Part shown: positions 22,201 through 57,458 of the stretch, in pieces | Position numbering within the stretch: the first letter of the stretch is position 1 | Layout: each line of letters starts with the position of its first letter | Origin: Promethearchaeia archaeon | Lineage (GTDB): Archaea > Asgardarchaeota > Lokiarchaeia > Sigyniarchaeales > SOKP01 | Length of the DNA stretch: 64,000 bases | Assembly: GCA_029856145.1 (NCBI GenBank) | Contig: JAHQWK010000008.1 | Coordinates: 1 to 64,000, forward strand | Reading direction: 5' to 3' | Made by a program: the position numbers and the translations under genes | Notes under the pieces: generated by a model | What the model was told of the DNA's origin: nothing | The model's database searches: none | What the model saw: the letters and a program-made list of their open reading frames with translations, nothing else

Positions 22201-25200
22201 AGGTTATTGGAAGCATTTTAAAATCAAGTATCGCATTAGCTATCTTTATAGTACCATTTTTCTTACAATTATTTTCTTCAGAGACTAAATTTTTCTATGA
22301 TTTTCTTTACTTTGTTCCATTTTATCAGGTATTAATTTTTGCCTTGTTCCTTCTTATTTTTACTTTTAATATGAAATTATCGCAATCTCGCCAACTTTAT
22401 ATGATACTGGCTCCCATTTTTTTGGTTCCCTTTATCATAGGCATGCAGCATATATTACCTTCTATAGTTACGGTATGTATTATACCTGCTATGATTATTC
22501 CAAGTTATATTATTTTCAGAGGACAACCAATAATTAGACAAAGAATCTCTAAGAAACGAGATTGGTCAAGATTTAAGAGTTTCTCTCTACACAATTTTTA
22601 TCATAGATATAAATACGCTCTTTTATGGCGATGCTTATTTATCCTTACTGTTGTATTCTGCATTTTCTTTATTTTTTTCCCTCAATCACTTTATATTGCT
22701 GCTGGTCTGTTTATAGTTTGTATATCTGTTTTTACAAAAGAAAATAAAGTGAGAGATAATTCGAACCCTCCAAAGTATAGTGCGAGAATGCTCAGAAACA
22801 CACTATTGATCGCTTTCTTTCTCGTGTTGATGCCCTTAATCTTTACCGTAAACTCTATGATCAGACTTAACAGTCCACAACTTCAGTATGCACAAATTCC
22901 ACAAGATTCAAGAATTGAAGGTTCATGGGTGGATTATAATTCTCTACAATATTATGACTCCTTAGAGAAGTTCAATGAATTTACCATTAATGATGCATTC
23001 CTTTCTCGATGTGAGATCTCTACGGGTCTTGGAGAATCAGCGGGAATGGAATATAATTTAATTCCGATAGACGTGCCCGAAGTTGAGGGATATTATATAA
23101 AAGAAATTTACTCAATTGCTTCAAGGCGTATTAGTGGTCCATTAACTAGATACGATCTGATTGGGGAAATTCATCTTAATCGACTTGATCTTCTTCCAGG
23201 AACCTACGAAATTTCGACGTCGTATAATGTTCAAAGTGGGTTTGGCAAAAGATATGCAGAACCTGAAGTGTATGAAATTAAAATAGTAAAAGATAAGTTA
23301 AGAGCTCTCCCAAATGAAGATTTTGATCTCGAAGTAGACTTTGGGGCCGTCTACACGTTGAAACAAGAAGGTTCTTGGAATGTTCTCTTCGATGGACAAA
23401 TTGTAAGCAGCTTGAATGAACCAATCCCGCTCGAAGATTTGGATCTTTTTATTGAAGTAAATGATCGATGGCAAGAAGTAGCCTCATTAGACACTGATAG
23501 TACTGCTAGATTTTACTTTAATCACACGATATATGGCTCAATTGAACAAAATCTCTTAGTAAAGATCGAACATGAAGGTAATGAATTCTATAAACCACTT
23601 GAACATATTGAGTATGCGGGAATTGAATGGAATACCGCCGATAAGTTCTACTTTATCCAAGACGAGTACGGCAATATTGAATGGCCTTTCAACCTCTATG
23701 ATTTACTTGAAGTATTAGCAAGTTATGCTGAATCACCCCTTCCTTCTTCATTAGATTTTATGGCTGAATTTGAGGAGAACTCGGGAACAAGCACCTTTGA
23801 TCGAGTTCATAATTTGGAAGGTCAGCTTCGCGGAAATACTTCATGGACTACAGGAAAACGAGACTATGGGTTATTATTTGACGGTGACGGCAATCTTGGT
23901 GACAGTGGTATTCCAGCTATAGAATCGTGGACAGAAAAAGGGAGTACAACAGGCTCGACAACCTTAACATTAGATAAGCCTTCTGGGGTTGAAGTAGGTG
24001 ATTTATTACTACTCATCGTAATGAATGATGATACGTCTGCAACTGCTTTTTCAGATAATAAAGCCGGTTGGAATTTCATAGATACTTCTGGTAATAGTGT
24101 TTCTGATGCCCATATTGCTGCTTTTTGGCGAACTGCGGATGGAACGGAAGAATCAACTGAGAGTGTAACTTCCGCAGGGGCAGATGAATGGATGGGATAT
24201 TATCTTAGGATCACGGGGGCTGATGATACAGATCCAATCGATGTCTATAACTTCGCCCAATCTTCATCAAGTAGTAGTAATCATGTTATTCCAGCAGTTA
24301 CCACTACCGTTGATGATTGTTTATTGCTTTATGGGTTAAGCTTTGATGGAGGAGATGGGTATCAGTTCAGCGTATCGGGAACTGGATGGTCGGAGGTTGA
24401 TGAATATCAGACAGGAACGTCTGGCGCGGGCGATGTGAGCGGAAGTTTTGGTAGTAAGGTTCTAGCCTCTCAAGGTTCTTCTGGAGATGCTACAGTCGGT
24501 TGTAGTGTCTCAGACGGTACTGCTTATTTTCAAATCTCGATTGCACCAAGAGGTCTTACTTATGAAGATTTCGATTATATAGGTTTCGGAGATATTTTAG
24601 ACAGTGCCCTTGGGGATTTAAATAACGAGTTTGTAATCTCAGGCTGGATCCGGCCTACAGTATTTTTATCAAATCAATCTGAGAATGGAATTCAAAATTG
24701 TTTTGTTTCCAAGAAAGGTATTGTAGAAATTGGTGTAAATGAGAGCGGGTATTTACAAGTATATTTGAATACAAATAATGTGGAGACTGCTGCGACCTAT
24801 GGCTACCCTTATGCCGTCCCTCTTAATGCATGGACATATATAGCTGTTCGTTATAATAATTCTAATGTAGATATCCTCATAGGTGACACATGGTGCCGTT
24901 CTGCTCTTGGAGGAGTGAATGAACCATGGAACAACGGAGGAAACCTAAAAAGTGGGGGTGCTTTTATTGTTGGTGCAGAGACAACCTCATATTCCTGTTT
25001 TGCTGGGAAATTAGATGATATTTCTGTGTTTAATTCTTCAATATCTGACGCTGAGATCGAAAGTCATAGTAATGGTCCTGTAATTGAGATTGACGTAAAA
25101 GTATATAAAGAAGATAGCCAAGATGTGTGGACTCCCATAACAACATCAGGTGAAATTATAGATGGATATCTTCTTTTTGAAGTTAACAGTACTGGAAAAC

Positions 25201-49200: not shown

Positions 49201-52200
49201 CTTCTACCATAAGTAAATATATATTACATATTCCAGTCAAATATGTCCATCCTACCACGAATGAAACCGAAGGATTTAGAGAGGAACAGACCTTAGTCCT
49301 ACGCTATAATTCTCCTGTTGATAGTGGAATTGCCATGGGTATTGGAAACATGTATTTTGAAGCGAAAGGATATAATTATGCGGCTCACCCAGATCTTCCA
49401 AAAGCAGAGTTTATGTTAGTAACTGCAAATGATTCTTCTGTATATTCAGAATTTTTAGATGATTATTATTATCAAAATTCGCTTCAATTAACTCCGTTTG
49501 ATACTGAATATAACAATAGATATAAATCTGTAAAAATCGACCTAAATTTGACTTCTTTATATGATTCTACCGGTAAAAATATATTAAACTTTACTCATCT
49601 GATCTTTTCAGTTCCCAATCCTACCTATGAACTTACCATTTCCGAAGTAGTCATCTTAGAAGAGACTCTAGACGCTTCTGAAGAATATGGAAGTATTGAT
49701 AGTAGGCTATGGCAATATACTGAAGCAGAAAGTTTTATTGCAAGCGCTGCCCCAGAGAACGATGAATATCAGTTAACTTTAGAAAATACTCCAATATTCT
49801 ATCCAAGTTTAGAATGGTTAGATTACCTTACCATTTATGATGAAGAAGGTAATTACTATACTGCGGGAATTACTGGAAATGATCATCAACTTCATTTTGA
49901 CTCAGCTACCAGTAAGTTTACTTGGAACCCCTCATTCAATCAATTCCCTGAATATTTTGGTATGGAATTTGAAGAACCTTTGATTGTGAATCCAAACATT
50001 ACCCTTTATTTCGAATATGCGACCAACACTTCATGGGCTCAACCAATTCTTCTTGAAGTGGAGAACATTGATCTTAGTTCTATTCGAGTGATTTATGATT
50101 ATAATTACTTACTGAAGCCAGAATTTTATGAATGGTACTCTTCGCTCTACAACATGGATCATTCCTATGAGAATATTGCCTATTCTTTCAAAGAAGAATC
50201 TGAATATAGAGTTGTTCAATATTATTATGAAGGATTTACCGTATATACCAGCTCATCAGAATATACCCACACGTTCAATATTGGCGATCTTTCATTTGAA
50301 AATGATTTTGTCAATCTGAGCCTCTATAAAGTAGTTGGAATTACCCCCACCTTAGATTATGAAATTTTAACTGATAACACTAATTACACCATTACATTCA
50401 ACAAAGCCACCAAAGAATTGAAGATCACCGACCTCAACTCTGGAAATGGATTATTAGATACATTTGACCAGATTACTGTCATTCTCAACTACTCTTGTGC
50501 TCCAATCTCAAGTTATACTGAAATTTATTTACGAAAAGAGTTTAACCAGACTTATCTTTCTGATCCAAAGGATACCTTCTATAATTACGTTGATATTGAT
50601 TACAAATACACTACAACAACAGGTGTATTGTTCGCTGAAAACTCGGCTATTTTGACCAGCGATACTACATCATTTATTTCCATTGATTATAGCCGTAATG
50701 CTGATATGAGTGCAAGTAATAAGTTAATTGGCTATGGTTCTGAGCTTTATGATAATTTCGAGATTTATTACGATGATACGTCCATACTATATGTTGCAGA
50801 TGTTGATATGGACGGAGACCCCGACTATAAGCTCACGATTGATGTTGATGGGAACGGGGAACTAGATATTATAAAATATGGTATTGATGATCCTCAAGGT
50901 TCAGGAGAAATTTATTGGCATACTGTTATCCAAGATTTCGAAAATTATCAGGTTTCAGTAGAAAATGATCTTGGCGAAGAAAAAAGGACACAATGGTTTG
51001 ATATAGATGACAGAATTTTTGCCCGTTTCGATTTTAATGTAGGAAAATTGCTTTTATACGCTTTATGTTTACCATTGTTACCATTCTACATTACCAAAAT
51101 GATGTTACCCGATGTGGACTATTGGGCGCAGAAATCCGTTCAAAACGAAGTGAGGAAAGAAGAGCATGTTTATGTATCTTACTATAGTATAAAGGTAGAT
51201 AATGATCGAGACGGTTTACCTGATACTCAAGTTGATTATGAATCCACCGATATCGATATTTACTATGAAATTATGGAGTATCGGGAGACTATTTTAGCAG
51301 CAAAAACTCAGAATATCTTCACAATATTAGGTGAATATGTTGCAAGAAGTATTTCTTCATTGTTTGATGGACCAAGAAATGACATTGTATTTAATAAGTA
51401 TCTCACAAAAGATCATCTGGAGTCTGGAAATTTTAGTTCTTGTCATTGGTACGTAAGGGCAAATGCTCCAGTATTAACTTCTACCTATCGCAAGTTTACT
51501 GAGAATGTCACCACTACATATATTGATAGTTTTAGCAAATCGACATTAACTGTAATCGATTTTGATGATGAAGGAGAGATTGAAGAGCAAAGAACATACA
51601 CTGATGATTTTGAAAATTTTGAAGTTGGACTAGACGAGTTTTTCTCCGATTTAGTTGAAGAACACTCTATAACAGATATTAATACAGGACAAGAATCTGA
51701 AATAAGTTTTGATCCTGATTTACCATTTACCCATTTTGAAAATCTTACATGGGATACACAGACATGGGGACCTGATGGAGTTCCTGTAAAGTATGACTCC
51801 TTATATGTCGAGGGAGATGGGTATAATTATACTTCAAACGCTTTCGAGAAGACAATCATCCTTAGAATTCCAAATAGATATTCATTATATGAGGATTACG
51901 GGGTAACTTCACGATACAAGACAAGGAATAGCGGATGGGCTGAATTTACAGCAACAGGGATGCTTATTAGACCCCTTGATGGTAAGGTATATTATACTTC
52001 TGATGCAGAAGCATTTGCTGAAGGAACAGCTAAGACCGACGGCTTTTATTTCTATGTAGATAGCGACTCAAATGGATTCTATGAGACAGTCTATATCTTA
52101 AGCGATACATATCTAAGAACTGACGCATCTGGGCTATTACAGTTTAACGTAATGGCAATAGGATATAACTATGACGGTTACCATGATCTCGTTCCGTACG

Positions 52201-55200
52201 AGAGATTAGGAAAGACAGCACTGCCAGTTTCTGACCTCGACAATTTAGGACATGAATCAACAAAATTTGGAACCGATTGGGTCTATAATTTTAATAACCT
52301 ACGTAATTGCAGACTCTTATGGGAAGAATTGACACCTTTAGAAGAATTAGGGTTAAAGCCAAAAGATCATATTTTTGAAATTTATAAACTTGTGGAACCA
52401 AGTGAACAGAATAGTAAATTCTCTTCATTATTCTACGATGTGAGGCACGAAACCTATTCAAATGCGTGGGAACAATATAGGAAACAATTAGTAGGAGATA
52501 TCATTGAGCAAGTGTTTATGTCCGTGACTGCAGGAATTCTTAGCGCATTTGTAGAATCTACTATATGTATAGCAACATTTGGCTTTGGAACAGCTCTAGC
52601 CAAGTTTTTAGGCGCACTTACATACTTTTTAACATACACTTTAATGACTAAGCTTTCCATCGATATCAAACTCCAAGCATCTCAAGCACGTGAGCGTTCT
52701 AACACCTTTTATGCAATTTCACAAGAGAATTATGAGCCTACCTCACTCAACCATAAAGCACCTGGTGATAGATATCTTCAAGATTCGATGGCGGCAGCTC
52801 TTATAGGACATCCCGGAGGATATTATACCACAATTAGTGGAGGTGAACCCGGAAATCAATATACCGCTCAAGCTTTAGTGAGTCCGCCAAATCTATACCG
52901 TGTGAGAAACGCATTTGCGGGATTTGGTGCTTTATTATGGGGAAATTTATGGAACATGGGAGAATCCGACCCTGATGTGTTTACAGCTCTTGATTTTGAT
53001 GATCGAAACTTAGACTATCTTCTGCATACCAGCGAGCTACCATCTTATAACCAAAAAGAACATTACACGTACGAAAACACTGTGAGATCTACCAACCTCT
53101 ATAATATTTATAAATTTACCACATTAGGATATCTCGAGAATGAAATAAAGGATGCTTCTAATAATCAGTTAAATACCATAAGACCTACATGTGTTGATGG
53201 ACAACCCCTTTATGAATTTGTAGACGGAGATCAATATGAACAAGTATTACCACAGCAAGTATTATTTAGACCAATTATTTTAAGTGAACGACGTTATTCT
53301 AAATTAGCACCAGTATCAGGCCATCTTACTGTTACTACTCAATGTAAGGATTATGGAAATACAAAAGGTGTAGATCCATACGAAATGACACCTTTGGAAG
53401 TTCAAGCAGGGTATAAAGCAAAGATCCCTCTCATGAATGATAGTTTTTACTATCCATTAATATCAGTTATTATTGATATCGTGAAGGAATCTGACTCTGA
53501 GACTGGACATTTCGCAAAGAATCTCATTATCAATAGCTCGTATTATAGGCTTGATTCTGGGAATTTATATTTCACTAAATCACTTGAGACAATCATTTCA
53601 GAAAAATATCCTGAATTTGAGACGGTATTAAGCCAAACATGGATAGAAGAGTTCCTTGATTGCGTAATTTATTACAATGTTCACATATATTTTGAAGTTT
53701 TTGTTCCCGATACTACAGAACAGACTCATCAATTAGCATTAGCCCAGACGACTTTCTACACAATCATGGATTATTTCAATCAGTATACTTATGCAGAGGT
53801 TTCGGCAAATATGATTTCAGAAATTGCATATACTGAGACACTAACCTTTTGGTCTACCTTAATCAGTGCCCCTCTTATCTTTTTAGGCTCTTGGGCTGTG
53901 AAAGGTTCCGATCAAATGATAGGTAAAGCGGGAATGGAATTAGTGAAAGCAGGCACTTCATCTATGCAACAACAAATCCGTAAAATGCTTATTAGACAAG
54001 TCATTGGTATAGCTCTAGCACCCCTTCAAGAAGTCCTTCAAGAGATCATCCAAGATGGCTTTATGGAGGCTGTAATTGAGAACGTGGTAGATATTTGGGG
54101 CTATTCAGATGATTTAGGATATTGGCTATCCTCGTTAGCCACTTCAGCGAGAGAAACGACAGGCGCATTAGGACGATTAGCCCTTGGTATTGATAACGAT
54201 ACGAAGTTAAACTTCATGTCTATTTTATCTTTAGCAAAAGCGAGATTAACTGGGGATACTGAATTAAGAACCAATGTTATGAACAATCTCCAGCAAGAAC
54301 AACAAGCTGACCTACAAAGACAAGCAGAAATGGGCATGTGGCAAAAACTCTGCAAATCAGGCTTTCTCAAAGGCTTTCTCATGCTCATCCCAAGCCTCTT
54401 TTTCGGCTCATTTAGCTTCATGTTCATAACCAGCTTTACGAATATGGTTGAAGGAGCGACTTCACTTGGACCACAGCTCTATAGCGAGTATAAGGCTAGA
54501 AGACAGGTGAATGAACATACTGAAGCTAAGACTGAGTTAAACTCCATGCTCAAAGATGACCCATCTATGTCTATGGACAATCTGTGGCTTAAAAACATGA
54601 GAAGACCTTCCAATCCCGATATAGAAGCTCTTAATAATCGATTTAGAGAACTTCAGCAAGATCCAAATGGTGATACAAAGACCGACTTAGAAGAATCTCC
54701 TATTGTAGATGTTTCCAGACTTACTAATCCCAACCCTAAGATTGATGAGTTAATACAACAATTCAAGCTTACAGACAAATTCCAAGAAATTCAAATAAAT
54801 AGTTGGATTTCAGAGCTCGGTCAAGACGCTCGTTTTGAGAGTAAGAAGGCAGAGCTAAAACGTGTAGCTGAGAATAAAAAGACAATTGACTTCGCCGGAC
54901 AAGTTGAGGCAATAAGAAAAATTATAAGGAATGCCCTAGAAGATTATCCGACACAATTAAGATATATGGATTATACAGGAGTCGTTCTCTATGACCCCAA
55001 GCATATAGGGTTCGGATTCAGATTAGGGCCAAATGCAAATCCAAAGATTTCTGGAATTTTACAATTCAGGGAAGATTTTCCTGAAACGCTGTCGACTGAG
55101 GATTACGCAAATGAGTTACAAAAGGCTTATGACGTTAAGACGCCTTTACAAGTTTGCTTATATAAGCAAGGAGAACTGATCTTAATGCCTAGAACCACTC

Positions 55201-57458
55201 AGTCTCATGCGGAATGGTTGAAGCAACACGGACATAATATCAAGACAGATAAAATTGTATTGATTCCAAAAAGCAAAGTAAGCAGTTTTAAGAATAAATA
55301 TCTTCCGACATACTCTAAGGGTGCTTGGGACTCTTCAAAGACCAGTCCTTACTTCGCAGAATTTAAATTGTTTATAGACGCAATAGAATCTACTTTAACA
55401 TATCATAGCGTAATTAATAAGCGGTCTGATATTAACACAATATTAAGGTTGAGTGAAGCCAATCCTAGTATCGACACATTAGATAAAGAAATATACCTCC
55501 TATCTAAGACGAATTTAGACGGTACTCCTAGTTCTAGGGTTAATTGGAATAAAGCAGAGGAGACACTTAACACATGGCTTGTCCGAATCCTTAATAACAT
55601 TGAATCAAGCTCAAGAATAGCTCCAAAAGATAAAGGTAGAGTGATACAGTCAATTAAAGCAATTTTTAATAACTATTATGAAATTTCAGGCTATAAATTT
55701 AAACATCCATTATATCGGGATGCAAAATTAACACTTTATCAGGTAGGTGAAGTATTGACAAGGATAGGAGCCATGACCACATTTTCAATTGAGAAATTAG
55801 ACGAATTACTCAAGACTGTGAATAAGCCAGGAGTTAGTAGTCTTTATAGGAACTTACAGAGGAATTCCGAAAGTAGACCTAGAACTACGACGGTTGAAGC
55901 ATTGCGCGATAACATTATTTTAGCAGCTACAAGTGCTGGCATTAGCCTTACCAAATCTCACGAGAAGCTCATCCAAGATATATTTAATGCTTATAGAGAT
56001 AAAGTTAATGACTTTAGATTAGCTAAAAATCAATTATCCGGTTATGATAGGACTTACCGACTGGAATTGATTCAAGATTTAATAGATAAATGTGGGCCCC
56101 TCCGACATGTATTAGCGATATCTATACGAGATTTTAACAAACTAGTGTTTAAAAAGGATCATAAATCCTTTACTGGAGGTTTCTTGAACCCAAGTAACGC
56201 TCGGGATCGCCCTATGCATAACACCATATTTGAGATTATCTACAATTCGGATGATTGGTCTACAAAGACCTTTAAGGATCTTGGAATATCTATGTCATAT
56301 AGTGAACTCAGGCAAATGAGAGCTGATATCAAGAATTTGGTGTTTGATTGGATTATTAAGGCTAAATTTCGACCTGCGCTCTTCAATACAAGACTTCTTC
56401 GAACTTCCAACTCTGTCGCTCCAGAGTTAGATCTTGTCTATTCTCTTTGGGTTGCTGCTAGGCGAAAGACTGGTAGCCCAAAGTGTGATTTCGAAGCAAT
56501 TTATAAATTACGATTGTTAGGTGATAGTCCAATTCAATATAATTTAAAGGAAGGCAGTGTATTTAGTGAAGATTCTTTGAAGCTGTTTAAGCTTACTATA
56601 CAGAAGTGGCTAAGGCGAGAAACCGACATTAGGAAACCAAGCCCAGACAGACGTAAGGTTGTTGCTTATGAAAAAGCGCTCAATAAAATCGGATTTTATG
56701 CACAAATCCGTAAGAAAGACCTCAGAGGCAGTCCAAAAGGAAGATCTCCTAGCACTCGAGGAGAATTTAATAAAGAACAAGCGAAGGTTTATAATGTTAT
56801 CCTCGGTTTGGGACGTCATTTAGGGTTCGATCCTGCTTTCTTTAGACCTGTTGAAGACCAAATGTTTGACATGAATGCTGGAGTTAAACAAAAATTGAAG
56901 GCATTAGGAAAGAAGCTTTACATATACGTCCGACATCATTTCAAGAACAATCCCGACCGTGCGTCGATCTCCATCATGGATCAGGTTATCACCCACTCTG
57001 GTACTCACTTTTACTGGGAAAATCTTATATCAGAAGATGAAGCACTCGTAGCAATCCAAGTGCTTGAAAATCTTGTAAAATATAACCGTAGGATTGATGC
57101 GACAGATATAAAAAATGAATTCAAGAAATTTGACAGGGAATATAGGTGGATTATGGCAAACTGGTTAAATGATCCAGATTTTGATGAAAATCTAAAGAAA
57201 TTTAACGATAGGAAAGATGATATTAAAGCTATGACGATTGACGAATTCATCTATACACATTATCGAAAGACGTATGATAAATTTATTAAAGTCTTACTGA
57301 AGACAGAGCATATTGGAATTCTAGCCATCATTCAAGCTATGCATCCGAATGTTGATGTTTCAGGATTGGTGAGTCTCGGGAAAAATAGCAATTACATAGG
57401 ACCTTACTCGACAGTATTTGCTGAAATCTTGAAGATGTATAAGTATCCGGTTTACTGA
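19248..57458 (+). CDS. giant 12,736-aa membrane-anchored surface protein with LamG, H-type-lectin-like and Ca-binding modules and a putative C-terminal HNH-like nuclease toxin
   Basis: 38.2-kb uninterrupted ORF in AT-rich DNA. TM clusters at ~19830-20660 and ~22200-22860; acidic, sequon-rich stalk at ~22860-50800; DxDxDG loops at 50790-52100; hydrophobic helices at 52500-54440; basic tip to the stop. The confidence is for the CDS and its architecture; the toxin role is inference. Confidence 0.85.
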   Translation: MSKRMSKTERKEPSELNRSVHQDSEPPEVVYSKLFQDGIARYRIKEHLVKAHEKKKLIDIFFFELSKEPLPKGHLEFLDELIYRSNKNKKHTMKKNIHWRKIDLCHHKESPKDSSHKTIIDKDEFLENAIENFSDDSVKFQAEPQESQDSLIEANDSKVKKQICLAKIFAPDLVFIDSKNTSSKKSRLKKFGKTLGFSVIVELSVLLFIALAYLCFPISFFIIEYHLDLFIVVQMLFITLRQFILFRKKERIFHVPLFFTIIMWLCVSIAHISYNQLTFIATFFGAQFFFILSELVLYFMKYDVSRKQVIIFLSVSTLLWGSYFITSFLPLDLNFMWIYVQIGVWFFVAAGIIVSSVLGYIPKLFKFLFSLIKKGCVWIGSIFIRIANSSAIVTLRKKVKSFIGQIKIRIENIRNLHNIKLYVRSGILLGCISLVFFIRYTAHLVINLATIGILFSILAVLMTVGYFLIFRNTGKTNFYTGKDDSHVQKQGISKESSEKKLEDIIEEIFYKYEKYKKIQHLTPEDFLFVRIVESYSDLEWSYKQLIKEIERSQRWVKEHNLRYILPHKVLWTILSIYLHYRNTRNYYPEGFLFLKKIANQRSRHSLDNISKEYYKAIKKEEDALLEFLKENKKKYKKFEEYQVEDYLSLYNDDVVEPNDQELSIEPQLSFHYPAKNSRIHYFNSPKSRKLFDASQIIADNIEQMEQYSKKKGSFKIINKVIQTQINEFTSHEQEGWKLIKLIYELKVSQDFLSAIVNNKKLFTKYPEIDHHAFFLLMLAPILGKELNFLKLTQHRKLYPPYLCSIGISADICNSLVSFLQEMEQKYINAKNCHYSELLESNKKHKLTKKFSYLKEQTITNVEREWLDYKQGIVRDGDTIKSISPIRKKARTHILDLIYNNTAIDYGQNTPEFFYLNNDKTKIIRKELCELNRNSELLVFVHARDYIKEIIDSYINIYEEHKKVISTRELERPKKQKSFEPVESRQVIGSILKSSIALAIFIVPFFLQLFSSETKFFYDFLYFVPFYQVLIFALFLLIFTFNMKLSQSRQLYMILAPIFLVPFIIGMQHILPSIVTVCIIPAMIIPSYIIFRGQPIIRQRISKKRDWSRFKSFSLHNFYHRYKYALLWRCLFILTVVFCIFFIFFPQSLYIAAGLFIVCISVFTKENKVRDNSNPPKYSARMLRNTLLIAFFLVLMPLIFTVNSMIRLNSPQLQYAQIPQDSRIEGSWVDYNSLQYYDSLEKFNEFTINDAFLSRCEISTGLGESAGMEYNLIPIDVPEVEGYYIKEIYSIASRRISGPLTRYDLIGEIHLNRLDLLPGTYEISTSYNVQSGFGKRYAEPEVYEIKIVKDKLRALPNEDFDLEVDFGAVYTLKQEGSWNVLFDGQIVSSLNEPIPLEDLDLFIEVNDRWQEVASLDTDSTARFYFNHTIYGSIEQNLLVKIEHEGNEFYKPLEHIEYAGIEWNTADKFYFIQDEYGNIEWPFNLYDLLEVLASYAESPLPSSLDFMAEFEENSGTSTFDRVHNLEGQLRGNTSWTTGKRDYGLLFDGDGNLGDSGIPAIESWTEKGSTTGSTTLTLDKPSGVEVGDLLLLIVMNDDTSATAFSDNKAGWNFIDTSGNSVSDAHIAAFWRTADGTEESTESVTSAGADEWMGYYLRITGADDTDPIDVYNFAQSSSSSSNHVIPAVTTTVDDCLLLYGLSFDGGDGYQFSVSGTGWSEVDEYQTGTSGAGDVSGSFGSKVLASQGSSGDATVGCSVSDGTAYFQISIAPRGLTYEDFDYIGFGDILDSALGDLNNEFVISGWIRPTVFLSNQSENGIQNCFVSKKGIVEIGVNESGYLQVYLNTNNVETAATYGYPYAVPLNAWTYIAVRYNNSNVDILIGDTWCRSALGGVNEPWNNGGNLKSGGAFIVGAETTSYSCFAGKLDDISVFNSSISDAEIESHSNGPVIEIDVKVYKEDSQDVWTPITTSGEIIDGYLLFEVNSTGKPIETLELYLSDTEPNLQNPNPNDWNLVTSFNYDNSLYSYVANSWDLPDDPSFYFVVKATDDLNNAVYDYYNTYFGINHFDELVNFTYLDKQGRINHNSEIGVSPREGFEGHISSLNVYINYSDDIDFLTNVEYNDLYSNYWLIYLDSLSDWVTNKSLTPDNYNVNFIIEANLTYGTGFPFYTYNYTLEQITLDIEGPAMTLLSGIPYSLTLGKTYDNIQENMITMGISSTDFDFYKVKIEYKYQTPTTADWLTYGTFYADNTSLAEILFNIINLRDDSIVFRFTGYDDLNNEYILSDSSYWIIKDLNNHEFFTIEGLNSTILYGLDVNGMIDIELKVLPVDNDITKVTISTNYESFSLTNAVSELDYLYFEDDGVEDVDIKLNSTYYNIFGSDFVFIPVSVKLYQGTTWITSESITICVITDSFDFPVEVSNLTVNLSSDEDNIWMSFVTGRDAYNNSHSIPFIPNNNPPVLKVYNSHNELVEIIPLWAYLDSSDTEVYNSGVIEIIDNKFTVSLPTPASGELCSIEEVDVNGTAYDFSYFINRKNNNLLITLITSETLDGTYGSLAPISIDYGISTSVKTSDQFVGSFNFTILPQDSYTFKGEFYDISGSISTFAISEPIAIDFSGPEIYPQFLTLNSTINPETSTISFVINDFSGVDSYFFNTSISGYWNVISNIYTFFFNDSAIIEGLTHIKFTCNDTLGYTSDLLLLLIFDRSNPQFSGVSTTDTIANDLFEIYVNVTETSDYSLTIQFTHNNSGTIFTNIDFTLIELFENEWYFTFDSAQLQDGYYDITIFATDSGGNSNNTIIEDIYFDNTFAHVTAFEEYIYVETENIYNNTISDELCFNEEEFIAITAFDEMFDDFDWSQIDQTLADQLGVKNITLYYSNPLTWYKISISSTLNYEQFTYVITGYDDPINTNIQNIKGIQSLTINNYTVDEFDVLLDGTKILLKIDEKYRYLLSSQYTDHIYAQFYEFIPENNIVLDFNAALSRWELKSLDLNYFNISDYLNLTEGDEFLFWFVIEDGLENTLHSHKMRGVFDNTMTQDPVDQNVFEWFLGTNSTGSGMFIFGSDNYLDSTIQVNVSSVVPTFLGEVDIGRIMLYGSNDTTTWQYLGRAYFTGEENMWNYYWDYDPVNIIPSENYNIKALLFDRAGNYLAHSHALKLYDYRTITLLTELVFGHIFEYNSSALTNENEIEGVIEDLFGSTDLWDLIAQFYDPLRKEWVPMTTNPATILSNGSYSITWDINEDDEFKASMYDFTYEYLPLQVVSPVSSDLWGSWGLFGDNTEWQPIIISETSSNVDITIFEFSNTTGWQVDSALSTEAVIPSIEGQVFKLWDINNNDKYEIIRISSSQIDVIYFNSTSEWVIKQNVTGLSEYSYYAFDIEYEGKTSNTLLTVIQKDSTQAFSIWKYEFETNYDLTHLDHCDAPLNFIPSAIKIVNDFSASDRKAILVSGLIEDSYYSQLFEYDFNLDIRNVLVNAILGEVVVVEYDEISGIDTIILGITRSAVGKKDAVVTLRRKSGTEKWVNFEVSGFDDVRFEILDLITIADNNLRKLIIGSKTGIYQTRITFEEDTTEITSPICYTFTTFSKGELSPIYYPEIEVTQLPLQKPIHKVNYIYYKVSGSSQWQILERSNFRYSRNSILIDLLSIWSNLEYIKIVYSYESFVSEERTAIDPSFQSYHGVSDTQTISASAMFFDETALPFLWYNPATISNLNYLPNSMTYQYTPVISGLGNKVFYPTIRSEVGSEYSNMPELENSLIYYGDSYDSGQLSQYLNSKDDYYEETMFGGNYENNYIDQLWLSNPYISENFNFTDMYYSQIHDDSSTSGLYNYYDTAQQVLVRNRLTDISPYNASYALIYDSGSLPTSMTRYNLSTVDYGTLGGWNTGGEVLYTQVNDTNYYEMESEHYDSGPPWYLIDIETLHAYFKIVGGYGGGDYYISCYIETEGTTNAKLKVNYDTLESGAVIDIKDAYIQNVNSIYYSFEEDEPHDTITAKVYYFKVEKVSSDSPAVQGASMEELEDVLLDWDQYISTYKDEYGIFGFEYTYELPVVSRESLQSLQLAFDATLSSTSFVQEYPLSIQLYNFETSQWESIPLAALDGIYTYNDDKLDYDFWRWTPNNESTDSMVKFEVGEITLDDTIDQSESESITFENIYNNPVVVAYIKSRDNDESVDVRVKDVTSTGCTIFMEEPDNGAHSSGESVGYMVIEAGEWEFPDGTEIKAGTVSTDIDHYYGGSTTVGVQVSFDTAFSATPVILHTLNTYENGAFKSTASHTISSSSFKVCQETAETGISTSTETIGWIAIESGKTGTFQGVKYETGRGNDGNKDGFDDDGHTFTFSQSFSSAPIIITKQNSLNAGNGAWARSYGTLSSSSHITCSEEDQVGDSERSHNDETFGFIAFEESLYSIGSTDDRFRPIWGTQNVESINTVSYGQTFPSSIDNDGNLVIDNSLKQGANFLVNTKDNSSVNNFFSDSYKFLTFDTSGYDASKYQLKNIIINITNFYTSASDFPSYQDSQSFALKNFYEEFLNDLHEFKIRVITQKENAQDEDALAYLCIGDFNTYTQTTTNYLNYEEFESNAIQGYHVSDKLEFTEDGIQLSGMSGFNTKDAPETQKFRDNFQTSTWNLLGASEPDIIFTESIEQDAMTRSLHPNSNYNSQEFDLSSFKISNPFTYCLWQDTIIKGTEIASYPDDTRYDDITYQIYGANLYGSNYEIQVQDNYDFEGAKTWDLEYLMFTDINVDSIKLYSDSGTIDETINGNTLSGTARVEDLKELYISTTDNLDHEISVDLLIYTTVVEEYETYIETQSFNYNYLTSGNNDMRELIVTRPSSLVYQGPYIYVYSTGGFDETIVTWNSRPATYDLLSQAEGLDDSTPITFPINLGKITENNYFKIDATDGGIDYYNDPPVRFTIGKKHQEGSLMYMQTNITETLKLKSAVYPSSTIITKNDQIVIDCKAATNSEVILTLFSEGEFVRNFTVIEQGNQDYSSQILVFTTNETIQFDQLQFTSTLGKEQYFVVHSIDVIAGASVIDAKLWTYDFTGRNLYSSNTVEETSSNFALFQDNLYYNLTSGWINDQYEIQIEFEFILPESEMTDVDKIDINLVGTGTGVSLGGAKFKYLNLATGPYEKIEYTNTGDTYTFSIDNVQKIFDSSSATYQVHFLITLGSSDIFTVHIDSVNAITYKEWSAQHDLYRASFVFERIHSNNNASVTIAVSDEISLTIEDSKLYINGYDNIMSFYYNCTEQQWHAYLNEETTDLLVNATESEPTPKLRIESNYNSTSYGIIVKSIESQYYKRVRDSADFEEYKSVLASYRAVQGHGEVIELDSRDANITPENTFAQVCADVDIIYSFHDDMQEENIFSYELIPTFSSSSFDNLTSVVYDETGFIFSSVSDLTIYNVTSVDGDVTKTSGDLSDLNEKDDYNWVKFDSAWNTERYDNSPEFYKTPSGASGSPSEPDDWDIRDEGTCREYTVISGTSSVKAEDIFSFNGLPSWAGSAKDKEIEVKIWWDDSIGATLKYCKLYVMDWGDPYDTDDTYVEKASFYEAQWDTRTISLASGNINRWLDYNTKLYQTKIKIETYVEASLLPALDVNIEYLYLDFKKDDKDTSAVEFEFDDLINGENDFYVYFRGKTDGLDFTSKLLIDGVEKLSFNNTFEEYAGFVSDVDSIKVWIADDGEIYHPSLDNREVILDYLVVKWVNEDINFTVYNKDSILLNSSLSHTQASSTPIDRGFVEYNQYFGKNTLHFTLKNSIQTPIFGRNNSLIYADLDLTDLDLDFTLFPDESYEDFPTEHQNVEGKNSTQYNTDILKDYNEYSNSRFKNSAIDDIQIPLMTPIEMDFGDINLDDFSDIDLEIVLDYGLALQNRAKNSEWSWRFRLIYYNYTSGAWEDFKGLLRAKNMGYERSVWDPSKNFAMYLQNPEVNDFIPILDDNDIQLKNPILIDSITNDTLSDGIFKLAFVSYILPGNLSIMGEIYQGECFSYEREDPLVPISISQTVNMLECILISESREIIYPESSVVVNLELNENLKANLSSISNLGEIVAVKGRYIDNKEILYEYPIHSYWVTAEDELAFNSPMKYLFTNVTIEYVPQLALNYNATDGYWYLPNNVFIASRNFSQPFFVSSLCVNNTFYGTYIHPDVDVGYTVGFLGNRTYVKFAENIHPDSTVKGAVHFAKVGYKYLYKFSLKDELLYSYNILNEDTPLIDGIFHIELNAGFKDVIYSELSQVACEDYQLFINITRVDTYTGETRSIGYSSIELDSSLLGYHLYNLDVSLDEFTFVSNGRDLLKEAITRGTHYDLQVTLESSISNCIVDGHLFKGMYAHELLIASFEIKTEESEMKFNGDQVQTPYIPIPQKSIILARLDTAMYQFSDLDYSFDFLIDAIRTEKYALYENIDYIFDSSQSTIILIGEYRDYSGYLFADITYKAFEWKEGSVSSLEPITLTFDNDYGRNISKFLEFSLQYNLIPGYELEKVDYTSGRLVLANEEKSSALMNIYLYNFNDNKWDKIEFVVYDDYTGTNTFSYVVDRNFITFEDYFNKTTGDEFEVKAVLAVEEVIGDYFVSQASFGITSINASIYYDTPDTEHTINPEIEFDVDLTEFFTGDSKYLEQIKVDLQFSGEIEFDSAFIFSQYALLEENYNFYIRNKYLDFEQFTLEDNTIILSREEINRLIFHDIENEKYYLRAKLEYDWTCILEMNLGSNSRLEIVSTLNLIKYDLSASYTSYETTRISAQEIDTPYDLCEIIAPDYIETDSGISVLESDNEIDIGIFGGFLRNANTRQRLMVRQQLYYTFNESTSGPQAILLDQEYTDAILRFLIPLGYLEQPYTYLINKTYFTFITDFEVIDVKLYRYNGVSDVFVANMTPHSTKVGIFEYTWDDVEGDTETTSGDTVELMFLLTDVFENTGSYRYNFTTDFNPPNPEISIGDGSESFEDCTADPTTSLTFTHTEEGLYTEYYRIIDNMLGSTTDWIKFNSTELLILDDLAILPENFTIEYNVIDAAGNENITSIYNYNYQYITFSREKSITLTDDTIDLNGFSNREISFTDTGQFNNSQNLDVYINGFRYGTAYLDSGSYRLSFGNENSKETLIAYSDSLLSDYIYSNINPLNHISWEVREDEYYAIVKHVLVDSDIVITNPLTYNITTEFELEHLYNRGFGLSDYMRIKQVYYINASDGSKIPLTLGPDFIVYEETGIVDFPEYSVVYNLYESISEVKDGIIYFEYDASPFADQLRLSNADGFFINFTMPSVYYEHTTIEKLVISLNDFAGNSFAKVYYDIDLRQYFLDNVKGQYEEDIFGLGKMMTIPLYIDLNEIAISNIDKQFDLKLLKSVSITVSDHERWPGSFIQNFENYSVMNLPYQRIGVKDIKLYNLISDTIEADEQGYVSASIMFRASDYYNLFAEAEFNIKKLDIEFTNTKAYAYNQEIDTSVDMEYSDFIELNYRWNNSLAQVLLNDIVYLPVSMINATSGEELGYSTANWITKFDYDSLSNYLTKYYYSKFEVPKTLGEIDISFSSPGTSLFNITFIDAPTIALNVTQESLSTDPIYLPETDYELEYGHTLLLEGAILDNDEYLVEDKVYNYKYQEALDGKTTHALDIVSPYGDPDFIDREEFAIYYVNDELKILPLFSTLNGRYFTNKTILDYNEDPTISYIDNSFVLNIYWRKNSTNFIHYDTNLLITHKVVNGKPISPISYSSLDSFGNDKQQNLMEIPFARYDMLTKNWVTQDTFTQQFRIDKVLLFEDVESSGTTIRGPSFEVGQNNITTGIIDIGDIYENKTDSEIFELVDEEEYSWLINTNGELVVSGLPYVSGDTFKISYYAYYPVAIPHSLNSPSSSIVYIKVINNSGYEFEFALNTDYKFSEDGYSVYFLDLYNSIIKSGNFSIFNTFEVKYTAPLTRKVDLSTNILLMLQDNLGNDIPIDVIPIDNLGFFEYEQVLREDSPLSIPLGGGKKLVHMLLSYLPLSVHNKSSGTSISISYSDPEFGNIYPYIESNSWAKPITILTIPDNVKLTMVEDPLDNIVFSQKYFEERDYVYNYNPMEALEEGEEYTKVMIDALVQQEYTFAFKLTTAEGKSINNSIVWAHIGLLPKSEKQFLNDRMVIEDLGISPYFEALGTQEITFIGPGESPNKMFGKPLLYETDGYNTNYSAYGPYYWLYSTTNENGEATFEVSFDQDYLTDFTDIFGSREGFDSVEDVVLYLRVFNSYFDWDEFEIDTPNQYLCSKDGMIYNGSTALNNYNFDKLALQDSTYVEGLIRLHKKDISVATNDYYSYQLPDADLGQNYEPLTLHLRVHEASPIPNGEATNIESLTKVYTSSELEPLPVNILKGDYTYYAAIQFYTPSGTLVETLYKAIEPAYNDGIVEIDNETVYTILDKLGPGISTLKIQILESESYKASPVIIIPIEIQPSNWIKFGQKNSQIDLINPFVSAWGVAYNGADEMPFESCYPHLIGSMWVEPFFNATGGDESIQDYIDINLDCTIYNDDGTTSTFPLQSNIMLRPGNWDGILTFDIGLGPESAFLMGLQCDLNLSFSIDFNSDKIFEDQRDVSIYLLDLRLEAYPSSSTPITTWSIYDDGFSDTTIKVKELDTVSTNTGTLDLGGTQSGVVYGQEVAFLFDNSTLDYALNAESELLNLLALDGIEVMKVAGIKDGDEYSFIKDTDYSIPYASSGILANESAIKFLGNDVPDEGTEFSITYKLKFDFDTNKYGVITLGYTSNENVSSIELQLHEDFLPTSNSSYSPLFIQFTDRFTGTGSQTEFTVNYGLSGVSSWSSDYFVIYNEQELIDNYGSFTKTVSSGRPKLTFSTAPPNQAKVNITYGIKSQYNLSYGFQKVDKPYSSSVRLIQNDDYSPSIKDEANNELATYSLSDPSMYISLDDSAEKTLLKLLNIPLLYDPEINMTFAFDGVLLDLIDSFDTDFNNLTIQFKYITNDGYYEFYSDPMVIPLDYSEISPDIVDNSYVIYYNKDLQAIYDMVGASSFDIEIILSQVGSSDNYIPYILLEEFEYISNTHIVENFGSMPLDKYGNMDTKAIVNSPHYYQTFSRPFIDSVYGSSPFNLIDGSQVTVGLQNLPNCTLISMDSDGETYNFNYLGDSSTLTVNNTNFYMIPNVAMYIDTYGIEETLYQDGYLDLYYGSGTEIDGEERYTANILMDYESSAIEDYRSSISNKVPTSWEDTYNFTNQFITTDIITVQGRVFYHQVFDLDTDTNSSSYINDIFPNYPNTIYFGLQLPDNFDVAQIKKVGEPYEYALSVHGFPTGKYQDKYCRLPETYSGPLPETEYVLTSSDYALEFYENGTAYVLFFKPANELSSYTDDENRIMIDYWINHEFLKNSDYSIHEDPNDPFTSQIDWDFAFTSLDTYHLHPDFDNDAFFTVEYSALEWEIFDSQYIHNGTDDFTFQPREYYNVSVLYTGGTSDLFSVQYIVPEGQYHDDEVLLSYLYALAQKGDDEETMEVFCVPNTETVNSIEQNAADSYNYTIYFSTIETYIKDTYGQDYELVDNSYVYVAAKYFTTQLRYSLSHTPFNYEYLSAGNNPYHIALYIDDTFIAYSYESTFDDYVEKIEDEYIYFHNRSSGEDGYIAPLSKIHLEYKFKLQPGLLDRKNFLIVTYPWTNQFNTIMDSIPAYREEYRKLSGGSIISPFEYSLSIDNKYSMYLTYRLNQRDYYEEKFEIASEHYKSSVNGYVYEFMTQELDNYVDVIEANGEEALSVYYFDGFSKMRFLDSTHYEINLAQREIVIKNDGNPLASPNGLSEFYVSFIPDGPDRTFSSYKFSYEKSSNMADTLQMPYWDVLEVEGVDVVPNLDAFYFMSENESSINNIVCYASQIAIYLSDNTEKLEFNIDGALTGFDEDIINDIHTGEFLALYIDTNIKNIESLDYLTIELYDSSDSLISGFTQMITREELELYDHNIRIELPTSTNTLKKIQFIPTFRSDDEYSSNNNIGIARYQTLQWDSELVSIMEDGQKYMHVELEHDLKTNNSQLAYIYNDKLEYLTFPENVSISYTLENYTSTISKYILHIPVKYVHPTTNETEGFREEQTLVLRYNSPVDSGIAMGIGNMYFEAKGYNYAAHPDLPKAEFMLVTANDSSVYSEFLDDYYYQNSLQLTPFDTEYNNRYKSVKIDLNLTSLYDSTGKNILNFTHLIFSVPNPTYELTISEVVILEETLDASEEYGSIDSRLWQYTEAESFIASAAPENDEYQLTLENTPIFYPSLEWLDYLTIYDEEGNYYTAGITGNDHQLHFDSATSKFTWNPSFNQFPEYFGMEFEEPLIVNPNITLYFEYATNTSWAQPILLEVENIDLSSIRVIYDYNYLLKPEFYEWYSSLYNMDHSYENIAYSFKEESEYRVVQYYYEGFTVYTSSSEYTHTFNIGDLSFENDFVNLSLYKVVGITPTLDYEILTDNTNYTITFNKATKELKITDLNSGNGLLDTFDQITVILNYSCAPISSYTEIYLRKEFNQTYLSDPKDTFYNYVDIDYKYTTTTGVLFAENSAILTSDTTSFISIDYSRNADMSASNKLIGYGSELYDNFEIYYDDTSILYVADVDMDGDPDYKLTIDVDGNGELDIIKYGIDDPQGSGEIYWHTVIQDFENYQVSVENDLGEEKRTQWFDIDDRIFARFDFNVGKLLLYALCLPLLPFYITKMMLPDVDYWAQKSVQNEVRKEEHVYVSYYSIKVDNDRDGLPDTQVDYESTDIDIYYEIMEYRETILAAKTQNIFTILGEYVARSISSLFDGPRNDIVFNKYLTKDHLESGNFSSCHWYVRANAPVLTSTYRKFTENVTTTYIDSFSKSTLTVIDFDDEGEIEEQRTYTDDFENFEVGLDEFFSDLVEEHSITDINTGQESEISFDPDLPFTHFENLTWDTQTWGPDGVPVKYDSLYVEGDGYNYTSNAFEKTIILRIPNRYSLYEDYGVTSRYKTRNSGWAEFTATGMLIRPLDGKVYYTSDAEAFAEGTAKTDGFYFYVDSDSNGFYETVYILSDTYLRTDASGLLQFNVMAIGYNYDGYHDLVPYERLGKTALPVSDLDNLGHESTKFGTDWVYNFNNLRNCRLLWEELTPLEELGLKPKDHIFEIYKLVEPSEQNSKFSSLFYDVRHETYSNAWEQYRKQLVGDIIEQVFMSVTAGILSAFVESTICIATFGFGTALAKFLGALTYFLTYTLMTKLSIDIKLQASQARERSNTFYAISQENYEPTSLNHKAPGDRYLQDSMAAALIGHPGGYYTTISGGEPGNQYTAQALVSPPNLYRVRNAFAGFGALLWGNLWNMGESDPDVFTALDFDDRNLDYLLHTSELPSYNQKEHYTYENTVRSTNLYNIYKFTTLGYLENEIKDASNNQLNTIRPTCVDGQPLYEFVDGDQYEQVLPQQVLFRPIILSERRYSKLAPVSGHLTVTTQCKDYGNTKGVDPYEMTPLEVQAGYKAKIPLMNDSFYYPLISVIIDIVKESDSETGHFAKNLIINSSYYRLDSGNLYFTKSLETIISEKYPEFETVLSQTWIEEFLDCVIYYNVHIYFEVFVPDTTEQTHQLALAQTTFYTIMDYFNQYTYAEVSANMISEIAYTETLTFWSTLISAPLIFLGSWAVKGSDQMIGKAGMELVKAGTSSMQQQIRKMLIRQVIGIALAPLQEVLQEIIQDGFMEAVIENVVDIWGYSDDLGYWLSSLATSARETTGALGRLALGIDNDTKLNFMSILSLAKARLTGDTELRTNVMNNLQQEQQADLQRQAEMGMWQKLCKSGFLKGFLMLIPSLFFGSFSFMFITSFTNMVEGATSLGPQLYSEYKARRQVNEHTEAKTELNSMLKDDPSMSMDNLWLKNMRRPSNPDIEALNNRFRELQQDPNGDTKTDLEESPIVDVSRLTNPNPKIDELIQQFKLTDKFQEIQINSWISELGQDARFESKKAELKRVAENKKTIDFAGQVEAIRKIIRNALEDYPTQLRYMDYTGVVLYDPKHIGFGFRLGPNANPKISGILQFREDFPETLSTEDYANELQKAYDVKTPLQVCLYKQGELILMPRTTQSHAEWLKQHGHNIKTDKIVLIPKSKVSSFKNKYLPTYSKGAWDSSKTSPYFAEFKLFIDAIESTLTYHSVINKRSDINTILRLSEANPSIDTLDKEIYLLSKTNLDGTPSSRVNWNKAEETLNTWLVRILNNIESSSRIAPKDKGRVIQSIKAIFNNYYEISGYKFKHPLYRDAKLTLYQVGEVLTRIGAMTTFSIEKLDELLKTVNKPGVSSLYRNLQRNSESRPRTTTVEALRDNIILAATSAGISLTKSHEKLIQDIFNAYRDKVNDFRLAKNQLSGYDRTYRLELIQDLIDKCGPLRHVLAISIRDFNKLVFKKDHKSFTGGFLNPSNARDRPMHNTIFEIIYNSDDWSTKTFKDLGISMSYSELRQMRADIKNLVFDWIIKAKFRPALFNTRLLRTSNSVAPELDLVYSLWVAARRKTGSPKCDFEAIYKLRLLGDSPIQYNLKEGSVFSEDSLKLFKLTIQKWLRRETDIRKPSPDRRKVVAYEKALNKIGFYAQIRKKDLRGSPKGRSPSTRGEFNKEQAKVYNVILGLGRHLGFDPAFFRPVEDQMFDMNAGVKQKLKALGKKLYIYVRHHFKNNPDRASISIMDQVITHSGTHFYWENLISEDEALVAIQVLENLVKYNRRIDATDIKNEFKKFDREYRWIMANWLNDPDFDENLKKFNDRKDDIKAMTIDEFIYTHYRKTYDKFIKVLLKTEHIGILAIIQAMHPNVDVSGLVSLGKNSNYIGPYSTVFAEILKMYKYPVY

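Follow-up and report, generated by a model that had tools for sequence, protein, structure and literature searches.

The locus

The window, that is, the whole 64,000-nucleotide (nt) stretch analysed here (positions 1 to 64,000 of contig JAHQWK010000008.1), comes from a Loki-type Asgard archaeon and is dominated by one giant open reading frame (ORF). The predicted product begins with a hydrophobic anchor region, continues as a long acidic stalk and ends in a tail rich in lysine and arginine (K/R). Between stalk and tail lies a conserved module with calcium-type loops and further hydrophobic helices, which is the subject of this report. Coordinates are collected in Table 1.

A Kyte-Doolittle scan of the giant places about 14 transmembrane (TM) helices at residues (aa) 205-1205 and the next hydrophobic segment only at aa 10597. 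The gap of 9,390 aa agrees with the first-pass annotation of this DNA, in which Ca-binding loops and pore-former-like helices were put more than 9,000 aa from the anchor. The four loop strings quoted there are all in frame within the one ORF, and its three hydrophobic stretches fall at aa 11089-11136 (a helical hairpin), approximately 11534-11553 and 11706-11733. The second of these is weak in this giant and strong in paralogs. A further hydrophobic segment, absent from that annotation, occupies aa 10597-10620 just past loops 1 and 2 and is kept in close relatives.

The module family

An exhaustive HMMER search with aa 10545-11744 returned 181 cluster representatives with a threshold of E≤1e-3, and 90 of these also pass E≤1e-30; most of the 181 are fragments of long genes. 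The region had been proposed as bait for related giants, and it did recover a family that includes intact giants of 11,376-20,619 codons. These open frames carry the same N-terminal anchor and the same module, and in the giants of G013, G023 and G177 the second TM cluster of the anchor shares one open frame with the module. The 20,619-codon frame (G023:C13, about 86,500-142,500) is well beyond the sizes usually quoted for prokaryotic proteins. The module itself is a conserved family of ~1,150 residues and invariably has a long acidic stalk on one side and a K/R-rich tail that changes fast on the other.

A profile, A1, was built from 91 of the 181 representatives and run on sampled genomes. It matched in 16 of 40 genomes of the organism's own Asgard family and in one of 43 genomes of one other family (a fragment with stops); it had no match in the 117 genomes sampled from another 25 families of the phylum. 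Copies are often multiple within a genome and often broken or pseudogenised.

Judged from its sequence, the module belongs to an undescribed family, and no described family includes it. At E≤1 no Pfam family was detected in the last 2,736 aa of the giant, and a profile search of PDB sequences with the module gave nothing meaningful. Foldseek comparison of the module model with the PDB gave no match at E≤0.001 (best E 0.15), with the limit that single domains may be missed in a 1,200-residue model. VIA-align in its wide form (48,161 chains) gave only generic two-helix hairpins (Z up to 8.0, 52-61 residues, rmsd 1.4-3.0), and in the ESM Atlas no match exceeded a TM score of 0.18 by query. The fold searches indicated a weak likeness of the module's long strands to barrels and beta pore-formers. 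In the structural comparison with colicin, RTX and Rhs parts that had been suggested as a check, no likeness appeared for the 1,200-residue model, in which single domains may be missed, with nothing in Pfam and nothing significant in Foldseek or VIA.

Loops, helices and an acidic stripe

The 12,736-aa protein contains five matches to D-x-[DN]-x-[DN]-G, of which four lie inside aa 10518-10946, a span of 430 residues. Shuffles of aa 1206-11732 contained 1.07 +/- 1.04 matches. Loops 3 and 4, those that the family alignment covers, are nearly invariant, including the acidic position 9 (D or E). In the numbering of the module alignment, to which 10000 is added to obtain residues of the giant, the conserved positions of loop 3 are D651 (18/18), D653 (16/18), D655 (17/19), G656 (18/19) and D659 (20/20), and those of loop 4 are D938 (42/42), N/D942 (41/43), G943 (37/43) and E946 (39/46). 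The motif, the further acidic ligand and the conservation that mark DxDxDG calcium-binding loops are all present, and the loops of the module are candidate calcium sites. RTX toxins have tandem GGxGxD nonapeptides (HemolysinCabind); the module's loops are instead single and dispersed, in a region with zero Pfam families.

A model of the module was calculated with AlphaFold2 (AF2) from the family alignment. It has a predicted local distance difference test score (pLDDT) of 81 and a predicted TM score (pTM) of 0.82, and it contains a beta-rich part with strands of up to 28 residues; loop 3 lies between strands 64-91 and 101-128. The helices past H3 are less confident and end in the third hydrophobic stretch. 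The additional hydrophobic segment (H0) is probably packed on the sheet in this model instead of spanning a membrane.

The most conserved residues of the module are those of the acidic stripe and the R-E pair after it, located between the last two hydrophobic helices (E1595 and E1599, 59/59 each; D1603, 58/60; E1607, 60/61; R1635 and E1636, 58/58 each). The C-terminal helices are marginal on the Hessa scale, with values of +1.0 to above +3, vs values down to -3.1 for the N-terminal TMs (range for the anchor helices, -3.1 to +2.3). Across the family the mean K+R count around H4 is 3.85 before the helix and 1.54 after it. Charge flanks, read by the positive-inside rule, gave no consistent topology for the C-terminal helices.

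Table 1. Coordinates of the giant ORF, its parts and nearby genes in the window
Feature	Position (nt)	Strand	Details and basis
ParB_N-domain protein	12607-13974	+	Pfam
NosD/right-handed beta-helix protein	14596-16077	+	Pfam
563-aa gene	16195-17886	-	syntenic left neighbour of the locus in two relatives
Giant ORF, 12,736 aa/codons	19248..57458	+	single open frame, DNA ~33% GC
N-terminal anchor: ~8 then ~6 strongly hydrophobic TM helices, K/R-rich cytoplasm-like loops	19860..22862	+	hydropathy, composition
Stalk: acidic sequon-bearing ectodomain, about 9,300 aa	22863..50747	+	K+R 5-6%, D+E 15%
Ca-type loop 1, DVDMDGDPD	50799-50825	+	aa 10518; pattern D-x-[DN]-x-[DN]-G; upstream of aligned family core
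Ca-type loop 2, DVDGNGELD	50841-50867	+	aa 10532; upstream of aligned family core
H0: hydrophobic helix-turn-helix	51036..51107	+	AF2 helices 39-46 and 49-60, beside 28-residue beta strands
Ca-type loop 3, DNDRDGLPD	51198-51224	+	aa 10651; tip of long beta hairpin in model
Ca-type loop 4, DSDSNGFYE	52059-52085	+	aa 10938; family alignment
H1/H2: 50- and 38-residue helical hairpin, hydrophobic tip aa 11089-11136, GFG turn	52425..52703	+	AF2 helices 501-550 and 556-593; hydropathy
Alpha/beta domain between H2 and H3	52704..53717	+	pLDDT mostly >90
H3: 69-residue helix, hydrophobic part aa 11534-11553, conserved T-x-x-S-T	53718..53924	+	AF2, family alignment
Acidic stripe E-x3-E-x3-D-x3-E, then R-E	54030..54155	+	family alignment
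H4: last hydrophobic segment, Gly/Phe/Ser-rich, ~28 aa	54363..54446	+	hydropathy; Hessa dG +1.0
Linker after H4 common to many members: NPNP motif, beta-grasp-like domain	54483..55277	+	BLAST links among tails
Exchangeable C-terminal domain, 726 aa	55278..57458	+	stand-alone genes and remnants in relatives
Zn-ribbon protein, 148 aa, basic, partner gene of this tail type	57510..57956	+	recurs behind tail domain in relatives
Actin, next gene but one	58273-59418	-	Pfam Actin, E 1.5e-132

Loss of glycosylation sequons

Sequons were counted as N-x-S/T, with x not proline. The 53 tails examined (45,491 residues) contain 4, two of which are in the last five residues, vs 331.5 expected (ratio 0.01). 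Control motifs in the same residues number 280 for S/T-x-N, 350 for N-x-x-S/T, 318 for D-x-S/T and 28 for the non-acceptor N-P-S/T. The 726-aa tail domain of this giant has 0 sequons vs 7.4 expected, the N-terminal cytoplasm-like parts of the giant have 6 vs about 4.3, and the stalk has 136 vs 110. The genome background, taken over ORFs of at least 250 residues, gives a ratio of 0.92 for those with no hydrophobic segments and of 1.27 for those with TM-like segments; of the 107 cytoplasm-like ORFs in which 4 or more sequons are expected, just one lacks them altogether. The downstream partner ORFs have normal counts, and a gene for an STT3/AglB oligosaccharyltransferase is present in the genome. 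The only other long ORF in this genome (G000) free of both hydrophobic segments and sequons (0 vs 5.8 expected) is a 2,119-aa ORF starting MQNPEALAQEALKLLEIAQKF, possibly another exported but bare protein.

Along the module the ratio is 0.84 at alignment positions 701-850 and 0.07 at 1001-1059. Sequons are missing from H1/H2 (0 observed, 13.8 expected) and from the first 100 residues of the alpha/beta domain (1153-1250; 0 vs 34.6), are present in its last 140 residues (1351-1490; ratio 0.85), and are depleted again at 1491-1560 (0.04), at 1561-1700 (0.05) and in H4 (0 vs 10.7). The purge thus covers alignment positions 1001-1250 and then runs unbroken from 1491 (H3) to the C-terminus. This pattern suggests two folded surface patches that tolerate glycans, and flanks of the first hairpin and an H3-to-C-terminus region that do not.

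Such a purge from H3 to the C-terminus argues that this region leaves the producer's cytoplasm, meets the outward-facing glycosyltransferase and must stay bare. It is seen in unrelated tail clusters and is therefore not one inherited accident. A tail that meets an outward-facing enzyme argues in turn against one that rests in the cytoplasm. The helices had initially been read, at somewhat better than even odds, as ordinary C-terminal anchors that return the chain to the cytoplasm; the sequon data overturned that reading.

Exchange of tails and orphan copies

Three further copies of the module in this genome (P0004, P0005 and P0006) share 25-26% identity with the module of the giant. Their proteins are 90-99% identical to one another up to P0004 aa ~1410 and only ~20% identical over the last 600-750 residues. 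In all three pairwise DNA comparisons (89-94% identity) the similarity ends at the same nucleotide, ~27 codons past the last helix, at a junction with the motif ...DSADSLFELKDAVKxILESxHQ. A conserved body, unrelated C-termini in close relatives and a fixed switch point, as in polymorphic toxins, are thus all found in P0004-P0006.

Polymorphic toxins are further characterised by orphan cassettes truncated at the 5' end, and such cassettes, which here retain the module's end and a tail, are also found. Homology of the P0004 locus to a long gene starts 50 nt upstream of the P0004 ATG, and P0004 is therefore a 5'-truncated orphan copy. More truncated copies that start inside the module occur in relatives (P0157, P0158 and P0159). 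The arrangement in G177 is a classical one. Its giant is followed by a small ORF, after which come a 94-residue piece left over from the giant's tail, a paralog of the small ORF, an orphan and a leucine-rich repeat (LRR) gene. The orphan, on the same strand 5 kb downstream of the giant, combines the end of the module with a different tail, which is 40% identical to the tail of P0158 (both are of the S24 type).

P0006 and its 153-aa partner ORF directly adjoin the gene for ribosomal protein S3 (KH_2 and Ribosomal_S3_C; L008 4865-5683, minus strand). The loci therefore lie in a core chromosomal context and not in an obvious mobile element.

Partner genes behind the tails

A specific small downstream gene that travels with the tail type, as in polymorphic toxin systems, is found here as well. 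Behind the seven tails examined are seven small ORFs on the same strand, five of them unlike any other and two alike. The two alike are LRR genes with 35% identity to each other, which follow the two S24-type tails (the G177 orphan and P0158). A counter-case to this joint travel is provided by P0005 and P0006, whose tails are weakly alike yet have different partners.

The tail domain of the giant and its Zn-ribbon gene occur together in 4 other loci, with Zn-ribbon identities of 47-66%. Complex prediction with tail aa 2300-2736 and the Zn-ribbon protein gave weak support for an interaction. Scores had a median of 0.59, vs 0.00 for the best control. Of 80 solved complexes 58 attain the mark used, as do 2 of 110 mismatched pairs; scores ≤0.60 account for only 7 of those 80 and for both of the passing mismatches. 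The runs agreed in at least 0% of contacts, with a partner pLDDT of at least 68.

In the relative without the body of the giant, neighbouring genes encode a SUFU-domain protein and a PemK toxin (L026 1809-3392, minus strand, and 888-1256, plus strand). The SUFU family is among the immunity proteins of polymorphic toxins (Zhang et al. 2012, PMC3482391).

Tail domains in relatives

Tails are 400-1,700 aa long. Among 54 tails of at least 200 residues, 36 form one BLAST-linked cluster and the rest fall into eight others. The extreme C-terminus of P0080 matches Toxin-deaminase PF14424 (BURPS668_1122-type) at 27.3 bits (cut-off 29.6), and LAGLIDADG_3 ends were found in P0033 and P0048 at 29.4 and 23.0 bits, above the cut-off of 22.5. 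An S24-like peptidase is indicated in six members (five representatives and P0158) at 16-21.6 bits (cut-off 23.3), with a GVSMYP motif in the domain of P0158. GIY-YIG-like motifs were seen by eye in P0157 and P0005. Regular-expression searches of the tails for deaminase, LAGLIDADG and S24 motifs gave none, and searching the PDB with the single tail sequences of three relatives was equally fruitless. Between the last 130 aa of the G177 giant and those of P0157, a comparison prompted by the related downstream genes, homology was only marginal (E 0.03 in a two-sequence search). Polymorphic toxin systems include pre-toxin domains, releasing peptidases, Imm-LRR proteins, URI nucleases (GIY-YIG; Tox-URI) and BURPS668_1122 deaminases (PMC3482391); LAGLIDADG ends have 0 occurrences in the same survey (Zhang et al. 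2012, PMC3482391).

Tail of this giant and its neighborhood

The AF2 model of the giant's tail (pLDDT 73.6) is helical with a weak beta-grasp-like domain. No significant fold or family match was obtained for this tail with Pfam, PDB profile search, Foldseek (E≤0.001) or VIA; the wide VIA search returned only generic helical hairpins, 4-helix bundles and the weak beta-grasp. Residues 173-270 of the tail model, which correspond to the linker, resemble ubiquitin-like folds weakly in VIA (Z ~6.5, 71-81 residues, rmsd 2.5-2.9). A weak Pfam match to ThiS stands at the relative position of the linker in the tail of a relative.

An invariant motif of the 726-aa domain, RHHF-x2-NP-x-R...H-x2-W...E, lies at nt 56931-57035. 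In the model it lies on a beta-beta-alpha element (tail residues 815-848), an arrangement compatible with a His-Me finger. The domain also exists as stand-alone genes, P0162 (62% identity) and P0163 (46%), with a Zn-ribbon homolog next (47-49%). Of 24 other genomes of the genus, 3 carry it, two of these as a remnant. One of the stand-alone loci, without the body of the giant, shares synteny with the window (upstream 563-aa gene 44% and actin 99.5% identical), and at another only the last 212 tail residues are left, beside an intact Zn-ribbon gene (66% identity).

Actin adjoins the tail/Zn-ribbon pair in three loci and in two arrangements, namely in the window, in L026 (13203-14363 and 15931-17076, two actin copies in one relative) and in L027 (7777-8898). 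The pair stands apart from actin in a fourth locus (L033), so the link may be chance or local synteny. From the actin genes it had been supposed that the 726-aa tail might be a core protein, conserved and linked to the cytoskeleton. This was dropped because of the few genus genomes that carry the domain (two of the three as remnants), the locus that lacks actin, and the identity of 99.5% for actin vs 62% for the tail. The genes listed upstream of the giant stand among ORFs with no Pfam matches.

Anchor and stalk

The anchor region (window 19248-22862) comprises a 200-aa basic head, ~8 TMs, a 520-aa K/R-rich cytoplasm-like domain and ~6 TMs, and has zero Pfam matches. Of its TM clusters only the second is conserved in other giants. 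The anchor is unusually elaborate, more so than simple anchoring requires. In Pfam the stalk matches only Laminin_G_3 (aa 1790-1937), H_lectin (aa 4133-4174) and, weakly, Big_13, once each. Some 9,000 residues of this ectodomain, presumably beta-rich, are undescribed.

Comparison with known systems

CdiA resembles the giant in several respects. It is a very long filamentous surface protein; near-identical genes have unrelated C-termini beyond a fixed junction, a small partner gene lies directly downstream, and 5'-truncated orphans keep part of the conserved region. Its pre-toxin segment is thought to enter the target's membrane. The host of the giant is, in contrast, a single-membrane archaeon. 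The giant has an anchor of ~14 N-terminal TMs and neither a two-partner secretion (TPS) domain nor a CdiB partner; Pfam found no FHA or PT-VENN in it, and its junction motif is not VENN. The module is helical with hydrophobic hairpins and not beta-helical, and the tails have 400-1,700 aa vs about 200-300 aa. With respect to Rhs/YD-repeat toxins, Pfam found no RHS or YD family in any third of the giant.

Polymorphic toxin systems in general comprise a trafficking part, repeats, a pre-toxin domain, an optional releasing peptidase, a toxin, an adjacent immunity gene (LRR types included) and spare cassettes (PMC3482391). The giant and its relatives share this template, with the tail as putative toxin and the downstream gene as putative immunity gene. 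Archaeal examples were given by Makarova et al. 2019, as summarised in PMC8416519. The giant differs in that its pre-toxin module is an undescribed family and its avoidance of sequons has no bacterial counterpart. The T domain of diphtheria toxin and the pore-forming colicins offer an analogy to the module, since they may be compared with it in having a moderately hydrophobic hairpin between polar helices, acidic residues nearby and a position upstream of the delivered enzyme. In those toxins the trigger is low pH. No fold match to them was obtained with the 1,200-residue model of the module, which is five times larger and has in addition beta-rich Ca-loop and alpha/beta domains.

The VARTIG proteins of Thermococcales (PMC8416519) are likewise large archaeal surface proteins with a recombining C-terminal part and variable downstream genes, and their authors compare them to polymorphic toxin systems. 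VARTIG varies an Ig domain and has no nuclease-type end, whereas the tails of the giant family are large, basic and sequon-free, some with enzyme domains. The system of the giant appears to work like CdiA, Rhs and other polymorphic toxins, yet it lacks the features by which those families are recognised (TPS, FHA, VENN, YD and RTX). In the literature searched there was no description of contact-dependent toxins in Asgard archaea, and Wu et al. 2022 describe only unrelated giant genes in Asgard genomes. The new elements are the module's anatomy, its conservation and a sequon map on which the bare zone begins at H3.

Interpretation

The features described above suggest, with a probability of roughly 0.55, that this region serves for delivery, as the pre-toxin module of a giant, polymorphic-toxin-like protein anchored in the membrane at the cell surface. 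A Ca-gated pre-toxin or translocation module had been proposed in the first-pass annotation. In favor of that proposal are the placement of the module between the stalk and exchangeable tails with partner genes, precisely the position of pre-toxin or translocation domains in the polymorphic toxins of bacteria, the orphan copies, and the sequon loss from H3, which would be expected of a chain threaded through a membrane; no likeness to colicin, RTX or Rhs parts appeared in the searches with the 1,200-residue model. Its other suggestion, a fusogen or a conduit for element transfer, gained no support.

In the mechanism that we envisage, the whole chain past the N-terminal anchor would be exported, and the marginal C-terminal helices would not be kept as ordinary anchors. 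Extracellular calcium would hold the beta-rich part with its conserved loops rigid, for stiffening or gating. On contact, the tip of the H1/H2 hairpin, H3 and H4 would enter the membrane of a neighbour, and the acidic-stripe helix could line or gate a path through which the unglycosylated positive tail would be drawn, perhaps by the membrane potential of the target. In some members an S24-like peptidase might then cut the tail free, and the tail would act on nucleic acids unless blocked by the partner protein. The broader idea is more tentative, and we consider it rather less probable than its opposite: that a Ca-stiffened beta domain, marginal helices and a stripe helix make up a single-polypeptide machine that passes a folded-later protein, a sequon-stripped basic cargo of several hundred to 1,700 residues, across another cell's membrane.

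Several points weigh against the delivery reading. Searches with the module and its 1,200-residue model matched it to no known translocation or pore-forming fold, and the 726-aa tail of this giant has no recognised toxin fold, its HNH-like motif being a conserved pattern only. Thirty-six of the 54 tails form one cluster of ~1,000 aa, much larger and more uniform than classical toxin tips, and the deaminase and S24 matches fall below the Pfam cut-offs. The charge flanks of H3 and H4 also fit helices in the producer's own membrane. A premise of the sequon argument is that N-x-S/T is the motif used by the local oligosaccharyltransferase and that this enzyme works exclusively outside the cell, and one sequon (N-D-T, aa ~11651) persists between H3 and H4 in this giant. 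Activity is an inference at every step, from calcium binding and membrane insertion to translocation, cleavage, toxicity and immunity.

The helices could instead be Sec-inserted TMs of the producer that form a second anchor, so that the giant is looped and its tail signals in the cytoplasm, to be released on contact by the S24-like domain as in a membrane-tethered regulator. The four to five conserved hydrophobic segments fit such a protein, and so do the greater numbers of K/R after H2, after H3 and before H4. The composition of the giant's last 1,005 residues (K+R 15.5%, net +29) is like that of the N-terminal cytoplasm-like loops, S24 (LexA-type) domains elsewhere belong to self-cleaving regulators, and in P0162 the tail domain stands alone with no membrane part. 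Sequon loss, however, at 0.01 vs a background of 0.92 and with N-P-S/T and reversed motifs untouched, would have no purpose in the cytoplasm, and a purely cytoplasmic signalling tail is disfavoured by these data. Tail swaps at a fixed junction, scattered 5'-truncated gene copies, tail ends that include deaminase-like and endonuclease domains, and the patchy, often pseudogenised occurrence of module and tail also speak against it, and we regard a second anchor as unlikely. The charge flanks and the sequon purge would be reconciled by a programmed arrest like that of CdiA, whose C-terminal half is reportedly held back until receptor binding, as Ruhe and colleagues are said to have described in 2018. 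The helices, in this variant elements of the producer's membrane first, would then hold the tail in the membrane or cytoplasm of the producer until contact at the stalk tip releases the arrest, and the tail would pass the outer face once during export and delivery, so that the toxin reading would stand. No second-step export machine is evident in the locus, and the H3-H4 segment is also purged (3 sequons vs about 70 expected), which is unexpected of a segment that rests in the cytoplasm and later in the producer's membrane; to this arrest, too, we give little credence.

The same polymorphism and linked partner genes would also be expected of a non-toxic recognition or adhesion system, be it a tag for kin discrimination, a fusogen or a conduit through which DNA or elements pass, in which tail and partner are matching identity determinants. 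Such alternatives were raised for VARTIG (Makarova et al. 2021, PMC8416519). The absence of a toxin fold from the giant's own tail and the ParB_N gene 5 kb upstream of the giant would be in keeping with this. The nuclease- and deaminase-type domains in relatives' tails are not, nor are partner ORFs with no signs of export and with normal sequon counts, the failure of any fusogen-like fold to match, or a chromosomal context beside actin and, for one paralog, ribosomal protein genes. We consider a system of this kind improbable.

Significance

Contact-dependent toxin delivery is well studied in bacteria and barely known in archaea, and the physical task of crossing a membrane would fall to the module. 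Its conserved Ca-type loops and invariant acidic stripe are direct targets for mutagenesis, and the sequon map is a topology readout, obtained from sequence alone, that could be extended to other archaeal surface proteins. Should the proposed mechanism be correct, it has implications for the way in which these syntrophic, protrusion-forming cells deal with their neighbours. If it is true, the closest archaeal relatives of eukaryotes may carry a translocation principle that has no described relative.

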